Of a stretch of 32,000 nucleotides of DNA, positions 10,111 through 31,770 are shown piece by piece (the first letter of the stretch is position 1; every line of letters starts with the position of its first letter). The translations under genes and the position numbers were made by a program. The notes under the pieces are model-generated. The model did no database searches and was not told the DNA's origin. It saw only the letters and a program-made list of their open reading frames with translations. The DNA comes from Candidatus Karelsulcia muelleri (lineage in GTDB: Bacteria; Bacteroidota; Bacteroidia; Flavobacteriales; Blattabacteriaceae): positions 30,001 through 62,000 of the forward strand of contig NZ_CP029011.1 in the NCBI RefSeq assembly GCF_003214255.1, given 5' to 3'.

Positions 10111-10947
10111 TTAAATTCCTCCAATTATTTCAAGTATTTCTTTTGTAATATTTTCTTTTCTTATTTTATTAAAATAATATAATAATTCTTTTTTAATTTT
10201 TAACCCATTATCTTTAGCTTTTTGCATAGCCATCATTCTTGATGAATGTTCTGATATTTTTGATTCTAAGATTGAATTATAAATTTTTAATTTTAACATT
10301 TCAGGAAATAAAAATTTTAATATTTTTTTTTTAGATGGTTCAAATCTAAAATCTTTTTTTTTTTTTAAAAAAAAATGTTTGTTAATTTTAACTGGTAAAA
10401 TTTGTTTTATTGAAATAAATTTTTTATATATATTTTTTGAATTATTATATATCATAATAATTTTAATAAAATTTCCTATTTTATAATTTTTATATATATC
10501 ATTTATTATATTAGACAAAATATTAAAATTTATGTTTTCTATTAAATTGCTATTATAAACTAATATAGGATATTTTTTAGAAAAAAGTTCTTTTCCTTTT
10601 TTACCAAAAAATAATATATAAATATTTTTTTTTTTAAAAAAATTATTAATTAAATAATTTGAAATTTTTAATAAAAAATTATTAAAAGATCCACAAAGAC
10701 CTCTATTAGAGGTTAATACTATTAAGAGTATAGTATTTTTTTTGTTTTTTTTAAACAAAAAATTATTATTATTTAATAATAAAATTTTAAAAATTTTTTC
10801 GAGATTATATTTATAAAAATTTAAATTTAAAAGTTTTTCTTGAGTTTTTTTTAAATTTCTAGATGAAACTAGTTTCATTGCACTAGTCATTTTTACAATA
10901 GAACTTACTGTATTTACTCTATTTATTAATTCTTTTAAATTAGACAT
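10111..10947 (-). CDS. atpG: F-type ATP synthase subunit gamma
   Basis: 278-aa ORF with the N-terminal 'LKELINRVNTVSSIVKMTSAMKLVS' and C-terminal 'ITKEILEIIGG'. It starts immediately after the atpA stop (TAAATG). Confidence 0.88.
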   Translation of the reverse strand: MSNLKELINRVNTVSSIVKMTSAMKLVSSRNLKKTQEKLLNLNFYKYNLEKIFKILLLNNNNFLFKKNKKNTILLIVLTSNRGLCGSFNNFLLKISNYLINNFFKKKNIYILFFGKKGKELFSKKYPILVYNSNLIENINFNILSNIINDIYKNYKIGNFIKIIMIYNNSKNIYKKFISIKQILPVKINKHFFLKKKKDFRFEPSKKKILKFLFPEMLKLKIYNSILESKISEHSSRMMAMQKAKDNGLKIKKELLYYFNKIRKENITKEILEIIGGI

Positions 10948-23811: not shown

Positions 23812-26604
23812 ATGGAATATAATTTTAATAAAATAGAAAAAAAATGGCAAATTTATTGGAAAAAAAAAAAAATTTTCAATAAAAAAATTCTTTATAAGAA
23901 AAAAAAATATTATATATTAAATATGTTTCCTTATCCTTCTGGAGAAGGATTACATGTTGGCCATCCAATAGGATATATAGCATCTGATATATATGCACGT
24001 TATAAAAATTCTCAAGGAGAGAATGTTATTAATCCAATAGGATTTGACTCATTTGGATTACCTACAGAACAATATTCAATCCAAACAGGAATACATCCTA
24101 ATATAATGACAAAAATTAATATTAAAAGATATAAAATACAACTATTAAGATTAGGAATCTCTTTTGATTGGGACAGAGAACTAAATACTAGTGATAGTAC
24201 ATATTTTAAATGGACTCAATGGATGTTTATAAAAATGTTTAATTCTTGGTATGATAAAAAATTAGAAAAAGCTAGATCAATTAAAATTTTAATTAATGAA
24301 TTTAATTTCAATGGAAATAGAAATATTAATGCTTTTTCTACATTTAAAAAACGATTTTCTGCAGATGAATGGAAAAAAAAAAAAAATTTTGAAAAAGAAA
24401 AAATTTTACAAAACTATCGTATAGCTTTTTTATCAAAACGATCTGTAAATTGGTGTCCTAAATTAGGGACTGTATTAGCAAATGATGAAATTAAAGAGAA
24501 TCTCAGTAAAAGAGGAGGTTATCCTGTTTATAAAAAAAGAATGTTACAATGGAGTCTTAGAATAAGTGCATATTCTGAGAGACTTTTAAATGGTTTAAAT
24601 AAAGTTAATTATCCTGATAATTTAAAAAAATCTCAAAAATCCTGGATAGGAAAAGAATCTGGAATAAAAATATTTTTTTCATTAGAAAAAAATGAAAAAA
24701 TAAAATTAGAAATTTTTACTATTAAACCATATATGTTATTTGGAGTAACATTTATAATAATTCCATTAGGAAGTTATTTTTTAGAAAGAAAAAAAATAAC
24801 AAATATTGTTGATAAACAATATATTAATGATGTAAAAAAATATCTTTTAAATTTTTCTCTAAAAGAAAAAGAAATCTCAGGAATATTTACAGGCAATTAC
24901 GTTTTACATCCATTGACTAAAAAAAAAATTCCAGTTTATATTAGTTCTTTTATAAAAGATGATTATAATTTAAATTCTATTATGTGTGTTCCAGCACATG
25001 AAATTAAAAGTTATAAATTTGCTAAAAAATTTGGTATTAAAATACTTGAAGTGTTATCTATAAAAAGTTCTGAAAAGATTTTTTGTATAAATTCTTCATT
25101 TTTAAATGGATTAAATTTAAAAAATTCTTTTTTTTTTATAAAAAAAATTTTATTAAACAAAAATTTTGGAAAAAAAAGTATTTCTTTTAAATTAAAAGAT
25201 GCTGTTTTTTCAAGACAAAGATATTGGGGGGAACCAATTCCAATATATTATGAGAATAATATTCCTAAAACAATAAATAAATTACCTTTATTATTACCAT
25301 ATATGGATTTACCATATATGGATATTTCTCATAATGAGATTAATTCTCCATTAACTCGAGCTAAATTTTGGGCGTGGGATAAAAAAAATAAAAAAATAGT
25401 TTATACAAATTTAATAAATAAGAAAACCATTTTTCCTTTAGAAACTAATACGATGCCTAGTTGGGCTGGCTCAAGTTGGTATTATTTCCGATATATGGAT
25501 CCTAAAAATAAAAATTTTTTTTTAAATAAAAGAAAAGAAAATTATTGGAAAAATGTTGATCTTTATGTAGGAGGAATAGAACATGCTACAGGTCATTTAA
25601 TTTATGCAAGATTTTGGCATAAATTCTTAAAAGATTATGGATTGGTAAATTCAGAAGAACCTTTTAAAAAAATTATTAATCAAGGAATGATTTTAGTAAA
25701 ATCTGCTATTATTTATCGTAATAAAAAAAAAAAATATTATATATCATATAGTTTATTAAATTTAAAAAAAAAAAATGATTTTCAAAAAATTAATATAGAT
25801 ATCAAATATATTAAAAATAAGAATGAAGTAGATATAGAAAAAATAAAAACTTGGCGGTCTGAATTGAATAATTCAAAATTTATATTAGATAATGGAAAAT
25901 TTACATGTAATCGTATACTTGAAAAAATGTCTAAATCTAAATATAATGTAATTAATCCAGATTTTATTTATAATAAATATGGTGCTGATACATTCCGTAT
26001 GTATGAAATGTTTTTAGGACCATTAGAAAAATCTAAAATCTGGAATATAAAAAATATAGATGGAATCTATAATTTTTTAAAAAAATTTTGGAATTTTTTT
26101 CATAAAAAAGGAAAATTTTATGTAGATGAAAATTATCCTTCTAAAGAAGAATTAGAAATTTTATATAAAACTATAAAAAAAATAAAAAATAGTCTAGAAT
26201 CTTTTTCTTTTAATATACCTATAAGTGAATTTATGATTTTTTTAAATAAATTAATACGTATGAAATGTTATAAAAGACAAATATTAGAACCAATAACTAT
26301 TTTATTTAGTTTTTATGCTCCTCATATTTCTGAAGAAATATGGTATAAATTAGGTAAAAAAAAATCTATTTATTTTGCTAATTTTCCAAAAAACAATCTA
26401 AATTCTCTTTTAGAGAAATATTTTAATTACCCAGTAACATTTAATGGAAAATTTCGTTTTAAAATTAAATTTAAAAAATCTGAACCAATTCAGAAAATTG
26501 AAAAAAAATTATTAAACAATGAAAAAATAATTTTGTTTTTAAAAAACAAAAAACCTAAAAAAATATTTATTATTCTGAATAAAATAATTAATATAGTTTT
26601 TTAA
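23812..26604 (+). CDS. leuS: Leucyl-tRNA synthetase
   Basis: 930-aa ORF with 'MFPYPSGEGLHVGHPIGY', 'VGGIEHATGHLIYARFW' and 'KMSKSKYN'. Confidence 0.96.
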   Translation: MEYNFNKIEKKWQIYWKKKKIFNKKILYKKKKYYILNMFPYPSGEGLHVGHPIGYIASDIYARYKNSQGENVINPIGFDSFGLPTEQYSIQTGIHPNIMTKINIKRYKIQLLRLGISFDWDRELNTSDSTYFKWTQWMFIKMFNSWYDKKLEKARSIKILINEFNFNGNRNINAFSTFKKRFSADEWKKKKNFEKEKILQNYRIAFLSKRSVNWCPKLGTVLANDEIKENLSKRGGYPVYKKRMLQWSLRISAYSERLLNGLNKVNYPDNLKKSQKSWIGKESGIKIFFSLEKNEKIKLEIFTIKPYMLFGVTFIIIPLGSYFLERKKITNIVDKQYINDVKKYLLNFSLKEKEISGIFTGNYVLHPLTKKKIPVYISSFIKDDYNLNSIMCVPAHEIKSYKFAKKFGIKILEVLSIKSSEKIFCINSSFLNGLNLKNSFFFIKKILLNKNFGKKSISFKLKDAVFSRQRYWGEPIPIYYENNIPKTINKLPLLLPYMDLPYMDISHNEINSPLTRAKFWAWDKKNKKIVYTNLINKKTIFPLETNTMPSWAGSSWYYFRYMDPKNKNFFLNKRKENYWKNVDLYVGGIEHATGHLIYARFWHKFLKDYGLVNSEEPFKKIINQGMILVKSAIIYRNKKKKYYISYSLLNLKKKNDFQKINIDIKYIKNKNEVDIEKIKTWRSELNNSKFILDNGKFTCNRILEKMSKSKYNVINPDFIYNKYGADTFRMYEMFLGPLEKSKIWNIKNIDGIYNFLKKFWNFFHKKGKFYVDENYPSKEELEILYKTIKKIKNSLESFSFNIPISEFMIFLNKLIRMKCYKRQILEPITILFSFYAPHISEEIWYKLGKKKSIYFANFPKNNLNSLLEKYFNYPVTFNGKFRFKIKFKKSEPIQKIEKKLLNNEKIILFLKNKKPKKIFIILNKIINIVF
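25294..25323. repeat. 15-bp perfect tandem duplication inside leuS
   Basis: ttaccatatatggat occurs twice, at 25294-25308 and 25309-25323. It is in frame and gives LPYMD-LPYMD. Confidence 0.92.
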
Positions 26605-26676
26605 ATTTTAAAGTATAGAATTTTTTTAAAAAAAAATATATTATATATATAATTTAAATATTAAAAATCTCTTTTT

Positions 26677-28614: not shown

Positions 28615-29895
28615 ATGTTGAAATGTTCATTTATAAAAGAAGAAAAAAAAGAAATCTGTAGAAGATTAAAGAAAAAAAATTTTTATAATTTTTTTATTAT
28701 AAATTTAATTTTAAAAAATGAAAAACAAAAAAAAAAAATAAAATTAAAAATAAATAATTTATTTTTTTATCTAAATTTTTTTTCAAAAAAAATACTTTTG
28801 TTTTTAAAAAACAAGTATTTTTTGGAATTAATTAAAAGTTATTCTTTTTTTTTAAAAAAAAAAAGAAAATCTTATAAAAAGATTATTAAAAAAATAAATA
28901 TTAAATTAATTAATAATCTTATTAAAATTCCTAATATTCCTTCAAAAGAAATTAAAAAAAAAACAAATATTGTTTTATATCAAAATTTTGATAAAAAAAA
29001 AATAAAACAAAATTTGTTTCCTCACTGGGAATTAGGAAAAAAATTTAAACTTTTTTGTTTAAAACAAGGATCAATTATATCTGGAAATGGCTTCAATGTA
29101 TTAATAAATACAGGAGCTTTATATCAACGAAGTTTAATACAATTTTTTTTAGAAAAAAATATTATTTCAGGATATATAGAATATATTCTTCCATTTATTG
29201 TAAATAAAAATTCTGTTTATGGAACCGGTCAATTTCCTGATAAAGAAAATCAAATGTATAATATAAATTATGATAATTTAAATTTATATCTTATCCCAAC
29301 AGGGGAAGTACCATTAATAAATATATTTAAAAATAAAATTTTTAAAGAATCAGAGTTACCTTTAAAAGGAACAACTAATACTTCTTGTTTTAGAAGAGAA
29401 TCAGGTTCATATGGAACTAATGTTAGAGGATTAAATAGATTACATCAATTTGAGAAAGTAGAAATTGTACAAATTAGTACATGTTATTATTCTTATTATT
29501 CATTTTATGAAATGGTTAATCATATTAAATATATATTATTATCATTAAAATTAAAATTTAGAATAATTCAATTATGTGGAAATGAGTTAGGATTTACTTC
29601 TGCTTTAACTTATGATTTTGAAGTTTATTCTCCTGGACAAAAAAAATGGTTAGAAGTTAGTTCAGTTTCTAATTGTAGAAATTTTCAATCAAATAGATTA
29701 AATATAAAATATCGTTCGATTAAAGGAAATATTCAAGATTGTCATTCTTTAAATGGAAGTTCTTTAGCTATTCCAAGAATTTTTTCAACTTTAATAGAAA
29801 ATTATCAAAATATAAATTATATTTTAATTCCTAAAGAATTAATTAAATTAATGAAAAGAAAAAAAATAAATATATGTCAAAATTTTGTGAAATAA
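28615..29895 (+). CDS. serS: Seryl-tRNA synthetase
   Basis: 426-aa ORF with class II motif 2 'FRRESGSYGTNVRGLNRLHQFEKVE' and motif 3 'GSSLAIPRIFSTLIENYQ'. The N-terminal coiled-coil arm is highly degenerate. Confidence 0.9.
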   Translation: MLKCSFIKEEKKEICRRLKKKNFYNFFIINLILKNEKQKKKIKLKINNLFFYLNFFSKKILLFLKNKYFLELIKSYSFFLKKKRKSYKKIIKKINIKLINNLIKIPNIPSKEIKKKTNIVLYQNFDKKKIKQNLFPHWELGKKFKLFCLKQGSIISGNGFNVLINTGALYQRSLIQFFLEKNIISGYIEYILPFIVNKNSVYGTGQFPDKENQMYNINYDNLNLYLIPTGEVPLINIFKNKIFKESELPLKGTTNTSCFRRESGSYGTNVRGLNRLHQFEKVEIVQISTCYYSYYSFYEMVNHIKYILLSLKLKFRIIQLCGNELGFTSALTYDFEVYSPGQKKWLEVSSVSNCRNFQSNRLNIKYRSIKGNIQDCHSLNGSSLAIPRIFSTLIENYQNINYILIPKELIKLMKRKKINICQNFVK

Positions 29896-30113
29896 CTTGT
29901 CGAAAACCAATAATGGGAAATAAAATTTCACATGCGAATAATAAAATTAAACGCAAATTTTACTTAAATTTAAGTAAAAAACGTTTTTTTTTAACAAAAA
30001 AAAATAAATGGATTACTTTAAAGGTTTCTTCTGCCGGAATAAAAATTATTAATAAAATTGGAATTGAAAAAATATTGTTTTTATGTCAAAAAAAAAAATT
30101 AGAATTCAAGTAA
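29874..30113 (+). CDS. rpmB: 50S ribosomal protein L28
   Basis: 79-aa ORF. '[33 protein letters not shown]' matches the L28 N-terminal pattern. It overlaps the serS 3' end by 22 bp. Confidence 0.9.
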
Positions 30114-30265
30114 TAATAGAATGTACAGAACATAAAAATAGCGGATTATATGGAACTTCTAGATATATTACTACAAAAAACAAAAAAAATAATCCAGAAA
30201 GATTAGAATTAAAAAAATTTAATCCTATTTTAAATAGAAAAACTCTTCATAAAGAAATAAAATAA
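30083..30265 (+). CDS. rpmG: 50S ribosomal protein L33
   Basis: 60-aa ORF with '[42 protein letters not shown]', the Bacteroidetes-type L33 pattern. It overlaps rpmB by 31 bp across an A11 run. Confidence 0.92.
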
Positions 30266-30266
30266 T

Positions 30267-30437
30267 ATGGAAAAAAACTTCAAAAACCATAAAAAAAAAA
30301 CTATTCAAAAAGAAAAAAAATCATTAAAAAAAATGACAAAAATTATTTTTTTTTTAAAAAAAAAAAATAATTATTCTTTTAAAGAAAAAATTATAAATTC
30401 TAATTTAATTGTTCATTGGGTGAACGACCGGAATTGA
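30267..30437 (+). CDS. Small DUF4295-like protein (56 aa), absent from the supplied ORF track
   Basis: The ATG is at 30267, 1 nt after the rpmG stop. Hand translation: MEKNFKNHKKKTIQKEKKSLKKMTKIIFFLKKKNNYSFKEKIINSNLIVHWVNDRN*, with TGA at 30435-30437. The block '..TK.I...K...NYSFKE..' and the position after rpmB-rpmG fit the conserved Bacteroidetes DUF4295 gene. The last 14 codons lie in copy 1 of the 56-bp repeat. Confidence 0.65.
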   Translation: MEKNFKNHKKKTIQKEKKSLKKMTKIIFFLKKKNNYSFKEKIINSNLIVHWVNDRN

Positions 30438-30607
30438 ACAATTAAATTCTAAATTCTAATTTAATTGTTCATTGGGTGAACGACCGGAATTGAACAATTA
30501 AATTCTAAATTCTAATTTAATTGTTCATTGGGTGAACGACCGGAATTGAACAATTAAATTCTAAATTCTAATTTAATTGTTCATTGGGTGAACGACCGGA
30601 ATTGAAC
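30394..30607. repeat. 56-bp perfect tandem array (about 3.8 copies) containing the 3' end of the DUF4295-like ORF and the 3' T-loop/acceptor segment of tRNA-His
   Basis: Copies of 'aaattctaatttaattgttcattgggtgaacgaccggaattgaac(aattaaattct)' begin at 30395, 30451, 30507 and 30563. The sequence at x equals x+56 from 30394 until 30607. The fourth copy runs on into the intact tRNA-His body ('cggcaaccc...'). Confidence 0.95.
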
Positions 30608-30661
30608 CGGCAACCCTTAGAACCACAATCTAATGCTCTAACCAATTGAGCTACGTTCACC
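30586..30661 (-). tRNA. tRNA-His (GTG) with genome-encoded G-1
   Basis: Reverse complement: G(-1)-GTGAACG-TA-GCTC-AATTGGTTA-GAGC-A-TTAGA-TTGTGGT-TCTAA-GGGTT-GCCGG-TTCAATT-CCGGT-CGTTCAC-C. The anticodon is GTG, and the extra 5' G pairs with C73, as is typical of bacterial tRNA-His. Confidence 0.9.
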
Positions 30662-30758: not shown

Positions 30759-31726
30759 CTATAAACAAAAATTCTTAATCTTTTTAATAAGGAATTTAAA
30801 TTTCTCTGGAATAGGAGAAATCAAATATTTATTTTTTAAATAAATAGGATGTTTAAATTCTAAATAATAAGCATGTAATGCTTGATATTTCAACGTTTTT
30901 AAACATTTTTCTAAAAAAATTCTTTCTTTAAAAGAAAGAAAATTTTTATACTTTTTATCTTCTCCATAATTTTTATCATTAAAAATGGGATGCCCAATAT
31001 ATTTTAAATGTACTCTTATTTGATGAGTCCGTCCAGTTTCTAAACTACATTTTAAAAGTGAAAAATATTTAAAGGTTTCTAACACTTTATAATGTGTAAT
31101 AGCTTGTTTACCTAAACAACCATTAGGAAAAACATTCATATGTGTTTTATTTTTTAAGCATCTTCCTATATTACATATAATAGTTCCTTCTTTTTTAAAA
31201 AAAATTCCCCAAACTAAAGTAATATATTTTCTTTTTATTTTATTAAACCAAAATTGTTTTGATATTTTATTTAAAATCTTTTCAGATTTTGAAACTAAAA
31301 TTAAACCACTTGTTCCTTTATCTATTCTATGTCCTAAAAATGGATAATTATCATTAATATTAATTATTTTTTTATTTTTAAAATAAAAATGTAATCCATT
31401 ACTAAGAGTCATAGATTTATTGCCATTGCCTGGATGAACTACTAAACCTGATTTTTTATTAATAATTAATATATATTCATCTTCATAAAGAAGATGAAGT
31501 TTCATTTTTTGATAATGAAATTTTTTTTTTTTCAAAAAAATTTCAATTACATCATTATTTTTTAATAAATAATTTTTTTTTTTATAAATTTTATTAACAA
31601 AAACATTTTTCTTTTTAATTAAATTTTGAAAAAAATTTCTTTTATAAGAAGAAAATTTTTTTTTTAAAAAAAAATCTAATCTTAGATTAATTTCATTTTT
31701 TTTAACAAAAATTTTTTTTTCAACAT
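30759..31726 (-). CDS. rluD: RluA-family 23S rRNA pseudouridine synthase with N-terminal S4 domain (RluD-like), with the start codon out of frame across an A9 tract
   Basis: The track ORF 30759-31535 (which starts at a TTG) carries 'LLYEDEYILIINKKSGLVVHPG', 'HRIDKGTSGLILVSK' and 'GRTHQIRVHL'. The same frame stays open to 31733 and encodes an S4-like 'INLRLDFFLKKKFSSYKRNFFQNLIKKKNVFVNKIYKKKNYLLKNNDVIEIF', with no ATG/GTG/TTG. The only ATG (31726-31724) is 1 nt out of frame, and A10 instead of A9 (window T-run 31712-31720) would join them. Confidence 0.8.
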
Positions 31727-31770
31727 AATATTTTTATTTTAATATTATATATATAAAAATAATTAAGAAA

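Follow-up and report, generated by a model that had tools for sequence, protein, structure and literature searches.

A 56-bp tandem array built on the 3′ end of tRNA-His in a cicada Sulcia genome: a probable young minisatellite

Results

The tRNA-His locus contains a perfect 56-bp tandem array

We analysed a 32,000-nucleotide stretch of the genome of Candidatus Karelsulcia muelleri (Sulcia; contig NZ_CP029011.1, positions 30,001 to 62,000), hereafter called the window and numbered from its first base, in which a 56-bp tandem repeat lies next to the gene for tRNA-His. On the plus strand, serS is followed by rpmB, rpmG, an open reading frame (ORF) of 56 amino acids that resembles DUF4295, and then the 56-bp repeat. 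Past the repeat lie tRNA-His(GTG) on the minus strand, a second tandem repeat with a 20-bp unit, and an rluD-like gene, also on the minus strand (Table 1). Each unit of the 56-bp array holds the 3′ end of tRNA-His. The evidence given below leads us to conclude, with good confidence, that the array is a young, lineage-specific minisatellite of cicada Sulcia, probably neutral and with no function of its own. It most likely originated at the tRNA-His 3′ end, through fold-back template switching, and then grew by slippage.

A direct check of the 56-bp period gave no mismatches in 158 comparisons over the perfect run, whose 214 bp correspond to 3.82 units. The periodicity resumes as far as 30388 beyond a lone mismatch at 30393, where unit 1 has an A and units 2-4 have a C. 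Over this slightly longer interval, Tandem Repeats Finder (TRF) reported a period of 56, with 99% matches and a score of 433. Elsewhere in the window, the 20-bp array scored 200 and the next-best repeat 118. Since nothing apart from the neighbouring 20-bp array scores above 118, the 56-bp array is far beyond what would be expected by chance. An initial sequence-only reading of the window had described a mismatch-free 56-bp repeat of 3.8 units, and the period check and TRF both bear this out.

The plus-strand motif TGGGTGAACGACCGGAATTGAAC (reverse complement of GTTCAATTCCGGTCGTTCACCCA) corresponds to the last 23 nt of tRNA-His. It occurs four times, and only the last occurrence, starting at 30585, falls within a complete tRNA. 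Each of the three extra copies holds G53, the T-loop, the 3′ strand of the T-stem, the 3′ acceptor strand, C73 and CA, with nothing 5′ of G53. We did not find an array of functional tRNA genes: ARAGORN and Rfam identified only one tRNA-His (30586-30660), and the extra units are not cloverleaves. The only Rfam family found in the array was tRNA, with matches to miRNA-like hairpins falling far below their gathering scores. The anatomy first proposed for the array, namely T-loop, 3′ T-stem and 3′ acceptor strand plus trailer in each unit and a full tRNA in the last unit alone, is thus correct.

Each unit is made up of 52 bp that are contiguous in the ancestral local sequence (29 bp before the tRNA end plus the last 23 nt of the tRNA) and of the filler AATT (4 nt); the 33 nt between neighbouring copies are the tRNA's own 29-nt trailer and this filler. 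The first unit keeps the end of the DUF4295-like ORF, whose last six codons and TGA stop are the tRNA-His 3′ end read antisense, and the last unit keeps the tRNA.

Table 1. Features of the tRNA-His locus, in window coordinates
Feature	Position	Strand	Basis or remark
serS	28615-29895	+	
rpmB	29874-30113	+	
rpmG	30083-30265	+	
DUF4295-like ORF (56 aa)	30267-30437	+	ORF list; 3′ of rpmB and rpmG
56-bp tandem array, 3.9 units	30388-30607	.	TRF; perfect run 30394-30607; repeat family D1
Array units	1: 30388-30443; 2: 30444-30499; 3: 30500-30555; partial 4: 30556-30607		Unit 4 continues into the intact tRNA
Extra tRNA-His 3′-end copies 1-3	30417-30439; 30473-30495; 30529-30551	-	Exact motif positions
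Junction filler AATT (4 nt)	30440-30443; 30496-30499; 30552-30555	.	Absent from single-copy ancestral sequence
Junction hairpin, 14-bp perfect inverted repeat TGAACAATTAAATT / AATTTAATTGTTCA, 9-nt loop	30435-30471; 30491-30527; 30547-30583	.	I13-I15
Intact tRNA-His (anticodon GTG)	30586-30661	-	ARAGORN 30586-30660; G-1 encoded at 30661
Second perfect array, 20 bp x 5.0, unit ACCATAAAATAAATAACAAA	30659-30758	.	TRF score 200; perfect run confirmed
rluD-like pseudouridine synthase	30759-31712	-	Pfam S4 and PseudoU_synth_2; alignment to sister gene

The copy number of the array differs between close relatives

We compared the locus with that of 28 relatives, all of them cicada Sulcia (Karelsulcia); the comparison is one between host species, and sequence divergence is tiny. 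Accessions CP029009-CP029028 are the Sulcia of 20 Japanese cicada species (PMC6042066), and CP168741, CP169620-29 and CP170724-33 are cicada Karelsulcia from a 2025 survey based on Illumina data (PMC12627099). The tRNA-His 3′ end is single-copy in 27 of the 28 relatives. The remaining genome, CP176552, carries the unit twice (TRF 1.9 copies, 100%), joined as in the window. Its junction reads ...GGAATTGAAC-AATT-AAATTATAAATTC, and the junction copies of the window read AAATTCTAAATTC, with C for A. Five of the single-copy relatives (CP198923, CP198909, CP169621, CP170725 and CP169628) differ in their trailer or in the tRNA 3′ end itself. The 21-mer spanning the junction had no match in a scan of Joint Genome Institute (JGI) metagenomes.

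In an ungapped alignment of 11.2 kb, the window is nearest to CP029024 (7 single-nucleotide polymorphisms, SNPs) and then to CP176556 (12 SNPs), both of which are single-copy, vs. 52 SNPs for CP176552. A second alignment, of 19 sequences, agrees on relatedness to the window. Because the nearest relatives are single-copy, growth of the array to about four units postdates a very shallow split. The array thus has the properties of a minisatellite: its copies are arranged head to tail with high identity, its unit derives from local single-copy sequence, and its copy number differs between related genomes. This last property had been predicted for the locus, and it holds between relatives, with one copy in 27 genomes, two in CP176552 and 3.8 in the window.

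The junction is palindromic and suggests a fold-back template switch

In the parse that requires the least filler, the two-copy allele differs from the single-copy allele by a 52-bp duplication (AAATTATAAATTC...GGAATTGAAC) plus AATT, the latter not being ancestral. The sequence TGAAC, from the tRNA T-loop at the 3′ end of the first copy, has a sole upstream complement, GTTCA, located just past the tRNA 3′ end and 24 nt from TGAAC in the ancestral sequence. A short inverted repeat (GTTCA/TGAAC) therefore already existed at the switch point, as is characteristic of quasipalindrome mutations. Fold-back on GTTCA predicts the sequence AATTAAATTA, with which the observed junction agrees over 10 nt (CP176552) or 9 nt (window). 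The novel bases complement the flank of the partner arm and extend the palindrome from 5 to 14 bp, which is the second characteristic of this class of mutation. The final six predicted bases (AAATTA) are also found upstream in the template, and would provide microhomology for a return switch.

The DNA hairpins of the array have predicted energies of -10.3 and -11.6 kcal/mol, vs. -6.9 kcal/mol for the ancestral span. An alternative pairing, of 30402-30415 with 30435-48, encloses a copy of the tRNA 3′ end (inverted repeats I1-I6).

We propose that a replicating nascent strand ending in ...TGAAC would have folded back on GTTCA and copied some 9-10 nt of the predicted sequence, before re-aligning on the upstream microhomology AAATTA and recopying the segment. 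This would yield a 56-bp duplication with a 14-bp palindromic junction. An A-to-C change in the junction copy would then have created two adjacent identical 7-mers (TAAATTC TAAATTC), and slipped-strand mispairing between identical, hairpin-forming units would have taken the array from two to about four copies. The order of these events (duplication, A>C, expansion) is indicated by the C at all three junction-derived positions and the A in unit 1. The fold-back step fits the junction well and is plausible. Both genes were left intact, which can explain why the array is tolerated.

How well does the proposed history hold?

Several points weigh against viewing the array as a young neutral minisatellite that began with a template switch. 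The two genomes that carry the duplication are 52 SNPs apart and are not closest relatives, so it must have originated twice with an identical junction or reverted several times to a single copy; SNP trees built on 7-11 kb have few sites and much homoplasy. The case for neutrality comes from the patchy distribution of the array. As to the fold-back step, four filler bases alone are truly novel, and the likelihood of a chance agreement with the prediction is about 0.03 in AT-rich DNA. Equilibrium folding (see below) suggests a possible cost to, or effect on, tRNA-His precursors. The number of units in the window is provisional, since a perfect array of 214 bp is longer than a 150-nt read and the true number may differ. 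Lastly, the sole independent assembly that matches the window, a Logan contig from SRR30806169, ends 17 bp short of the array, at about 30371 within a T/A homopolymer.

The last two points raise the question of whether the array, or its copy number, was created or misjudged by an assembler. We consider this unlikely. The perfect array does exceed typical short reads, and related genome sets were built from Illumina data. The Logan contig (6.7 kb), the only exact match to the window SerS, has one homopolymer difference over 4.26 kb and stops just before the array. However, the break falls at a T/A homopolymer with a one-base difference and not in the repeat, and the contig speaks neither for nor against the array. 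Assemblers mostly collapse tandem repeats rather than inflate them, and the base that separates unit 1 (A) from units 2-4 (C) amounts to an internally consistent history. The independent assembly of CP176552 shares the junction, and its two units are short enough to be spanned by single reads, which argues for a real duplication. The homopolymer (~30349-30370) reads T10A12 in the window and T11A11 in the Logan contig (L015), which may be due to homopolymer heterogeneity or sequencing error.

Possible effects of the array on the ORF and tRNA-His

A second alternative is that the array is functional, either by separating the ORF from tRNA-His, by modulating tRNA-His maturation, or by forming a transcription or processing barrier between the convergent genes. 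We think this quite unlikely, although each version has something in its favour. In single-copy relatives, the stop codon of the DUF4295-like ORF lies 20 nt inside the tRNA gene (in L031, for example, the ORF ends at 10171 and the tRNA occupies 10152-10226). In the window, this 20-nt overlap is replaced by a 148-nt gap, a shift of 168 bp that uncouples the stop codon from the tRNA. The separation noted in the sequence-only reading is thus a fact of the locus, but the relief from overlap that it was thought to bring is unlikely to have been selected. The overlap is kept in 22 of the 28 relatives (the 23 with the clade's trailer, less the two-copy CP176552), and 27 of the 28 have no duplication. 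Moreover, the ORF tail that overlaps (residues 48-56) is outside the DUF4295 match and is lineage-specific, the ORF ending before the tRNA in more distant cicada Sulcia.

The same reading had raised the possibility that the extra 3′ halves act as decoys in tRNA-His precursors. We folded the tRNA with its full trailer, assuming a read-through precursor, and found that the equilibrium probability of native acceptor pairing fell from 0.98 with one copy to 0.16 with two and 0.08 with four. The T-stem remained native (0.99), and the 5′ acceptor strand of the window favoured the third copy (0.75). Pairing with the decoys is therefore thermodynamically allowed. However, forcing the native acceptor stem costs 1.4-1.8 kcal/mol, a gap within the error of the model, and the native 3′ strand is transcribed first. 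The argument for a decoy effect is thus a thermodynamic one, and the effect itself is possible. The tRNA-His encoded here is presumably the only one of the symbiont.

A barrier between the convergent genes could be envisaged from the 14-bp hairpin present at each junction on both strands. The hairpins are A+T-rich, however, and are followed by mixed sequence with no U-tracts; indeed, no terminator-like site was found on either strand of 30388-30607. A promoter role was also considered and rejected: repeats of TTCACC-N16-TAGAAT match 9 of 12 positions of a sigma-70-like promoter, and the regional total equals the shuffle expectation. Identical units and an unstable copy number fit a young neutral repeat, and the array probably has no effect on expression or a slightly deleterious one.

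The idea that the tRNA 3′ ends are a scar of integration, i.e. attachment-site (att) duplications left by a lost integrase-bearing element, is extremely improbable: the part copied, from T-loop to 3′ end, is the one typically duplicated at tRNA att sites, but there is no foreign DNA between the copies, only 33 nt of local trailer and a filler that was possibly templated locally, and relatives differ by whole units only. As first noted from the window alone, there is neither cargo nor integrase. The neighbours (serS, rpmB, rpmG, the DUF4295-like ORF, the rluD-like gene and truA) are the same in every relative. We therefore rejected an att-site or integrase origin.

Tandem repeats are common around tRNA-His and elsewhere in the clade

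The 20-bp array on the other side of tRNA-His begins on tRNA positions U2, G1 and G-1, extends to the stop codon of the rluD-like gene, and forms the tRNA-His 5′ leader. This leader varies even more than the 3′ side does: the window and the 28 relatives together have at least 10 alleles. The 20-bp unit is present once in CP029024, 2.6 times in CP176546, five times in the window and about 5.6 times in CP170724. Other alleles have a 15-bp unit twice (CP176551), a 13-bp unit twice (CP176556) or an 11-bp unit twice, the last of these taking in TCACC from the tRNA (CP168745). In CP198923 the tRNA 5′ end is imperfectly duplicated, and a further allele carries a deletion.

Duplications also occur away from the tRNA, and the 11-kb alignment contains many that are restricted to single lineages. 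In the window, a perfect 15-bp in-frame duplication in leuS (25294-25323, TTACCATATATGGAT twice) is absent from all 10 aligned relatives. The window has one copy of the leuS-tkt spacer sequence (~26546-26615), vs. a perfect 70 bp x 3.0 in CP029024 (L031 6129-6337) and 71 bp x 2.0 in CP168745 (L029 6228-6367). The spacer duplications were independent events at one site, as their junctions differ (TTTTTTAG followed by G vs. TTTTTTAAG followed by G), and the unit contains a AGGTTTTT...AAAAACCT hairpin. In CP176554 (L034 7707-7802), a perfect 24 bp x 4.0 array within the transketolase C-terminal gene (tkt) lengthens the product from 322 to 346 amino acids, and CP176552 has a 24 bp x 2 array.

Heterogeneity in repeat length has been published for Sulcia (Waneka et al. 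2020, PMC7952229), as have alternative alleles of a 6-bp repeat in Karelsulcia atpB (PMC13345377). The view that perfect repeats are unexpected in such a genome, put forward from the window sequence, is thus not supported: sister genomes carry 70 bp x 3, 71 bp x 2, 24 bp x 4 and 24 bp x 2 arrays. Given that the leader array varies and that perfect arrays occur in sister genomes, tandem repeats are a normal mutational mode in this clade. The five-copy 20-bp array 5′ of the tRNA and the arrays of the sister genomes would have come from slippage-prone behaviour similar to that proposed for the 56-bp array.

A bolder version of the history would make the structured, G+C-rich ends of tRNA-His recurrent anchors for template switching in a genome that is otherwise extremely A+T-rich. 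The duplication with the same junction would then have arisen independently in two lineages of cicada symbionts, the leader would have been repeatedly duplicated in like manner, and read-through precursors with as many as three decoy 3′ halves of the acceptor or T-arm would measurably perturb tRNA maturation. We see this combination as a long shot.

Genes adjoining the array

The window has a G+C content of ~21%. In a search of species-representative genomes, its SerS matched that of a distant Karelsulcia, Candidatus Karelsulcia muelleri ENCA, with 66% identity, the other matches being from unrelated taxa. Many genomes of 238-278 kb encode L33 and DUF4295-like proteins identical to the window's. 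The DUF4295-like ORF has a weak match to the Pfam family (E=0.018, 15.3 bits, residues 10-47). The label given to it from the window sequence is backed by its place after rpmB-rpmG and by gene annotation in many relatives, an identical 56-amino-acid product being called as a gene in at least 27 assemblies of 0.2-1 Mb. In CP029020 (L004 3185-3421), the ORF is extended to 78 amino acids by an AAACC/AAAAC-type microsatellite near its 5′ end.

The intact tRNA-His matches Rfam RF00005 with 68 bits, and its cloverleaf has a minimum free energy of -25.1 kcal/mol; the CCA end is only partly encoded. CP169628 (L001 ~3348) has G for A in the T-loop region (plus strand CCGGGATTGAAC vs. CCGGAATTGAAC), a change that also alters the final residue of the overlapping ORF.

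The rluD-like gene lies directly upstream of tRNA-His on the same strand and is intact. We considered whether it might be truncated to 258 amino acids, and rejected this because the frame is open and aligns with the sister genes over its full length. Exact-match look-ups with the product, in versions of 317 and 258 amino acids, gave no hits. The minus-strand frame (window 31700-31735) is open from 31733 and has no ATG, GTG or TTG before 31535. The start position annotated in relatives is ATT in the window (31712), and an ATG ~10 nt upstream of this ATT is out of frame and followed by a run of nine As. This suggests a non-canonical start or a reliance on slippage in the poly(A) tract. The products are 317-323 amino acids long across relatives, through an in-frame difference in the number of (ATTAAT) copies encoding an ININ...IN stretch (window ~31347-31358; L027, L028, L034 and L035).

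Discussion

The array described here is a further product of a known mutational mode, the formation of tandem repeats in reduced symbiont genomes, and is distinguished by its size, its palindromic junction and its inclusion of part of a tRNA gene. Tandem-repeat regions with heterogeneous copy number are known from Sulcia and Nasuia, tiny symbiont genomes of the same group (Waneka et al. 2020, PMC7952229; for the atpB alleles, PMC13345377). The Sulcia regions of Waneka et al. are 54-141 bp long, with one unit specified (a 6-bp microsatellite) and no gene ends reported (PMC7952229). The window array, in contrast, has a 56-bp unit that contains the 3′ third of an essential tRNA gene and the end of an ORF, with a palindromic junction.

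Three better-known phenomena resemble the array in part. Where integrative elements use tRNA-gene att sites, the genomic islands are flanked by partial tRNA duplications, of the segment from T-loop to 3′ end. The array shares with these the extra direct copies of this segment, but has no cargo or integrase, and its copies are 56 bp apart with the tRNA's own trailer between them; it does not belong to the att-site family. Quasipalindrome-templated mutations, arising by fold-back template switching, have reportedly been described in E. coli and phage T4, in the model of Ripley and in later work of the Lovett laboratory. As in these mutations, the inserted bases in the window perfect an imperfect inverted repeat (GTTCA/TGAAC, 5 bp to 14 bp). 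Unlike them, the switch would here have been coupled to a second re-alignment that gave a tandem duplication, as judged from one junction. Finally, animal mitochondrial genomes contain tandem duplications with partial tRNA genes, in the form of pseudo-tRNA copies and control-region repeats. The likeness lies in a small, AT-rich, recombination-poor genome, in slipped-strand duplication at a structured tRNA gene and in the one gene that stays intact beside partial tRNA copies with no function. The window array differs in that it is on a bacterial chromosome, involves only the 3′ third of the tRNA, and resolves an antisense overlap with an ORF.

The tRNA-His locus, together with its 20-bp leader array, is hypervariable and could be used to type cicada Sulcia lineages that otherwise differ by <0.1%. 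Short-read assemblies are also likely to be interrupted here or to contain the wrong number of copies. The array offers a clean sequence-level example of a duplication junction explained by a fold-back template switch. If the decoy effect were true, the locus, with its alleles of 1, 2 and 4 copies, would provide a natural series in which to study how dosage affects the misfolding and processing of a tRNA precursor in a minimal cell. More broadly, small tandem duplications still come and go in the famously static Sulcia genome, at intergenic sites that bear hairpins.

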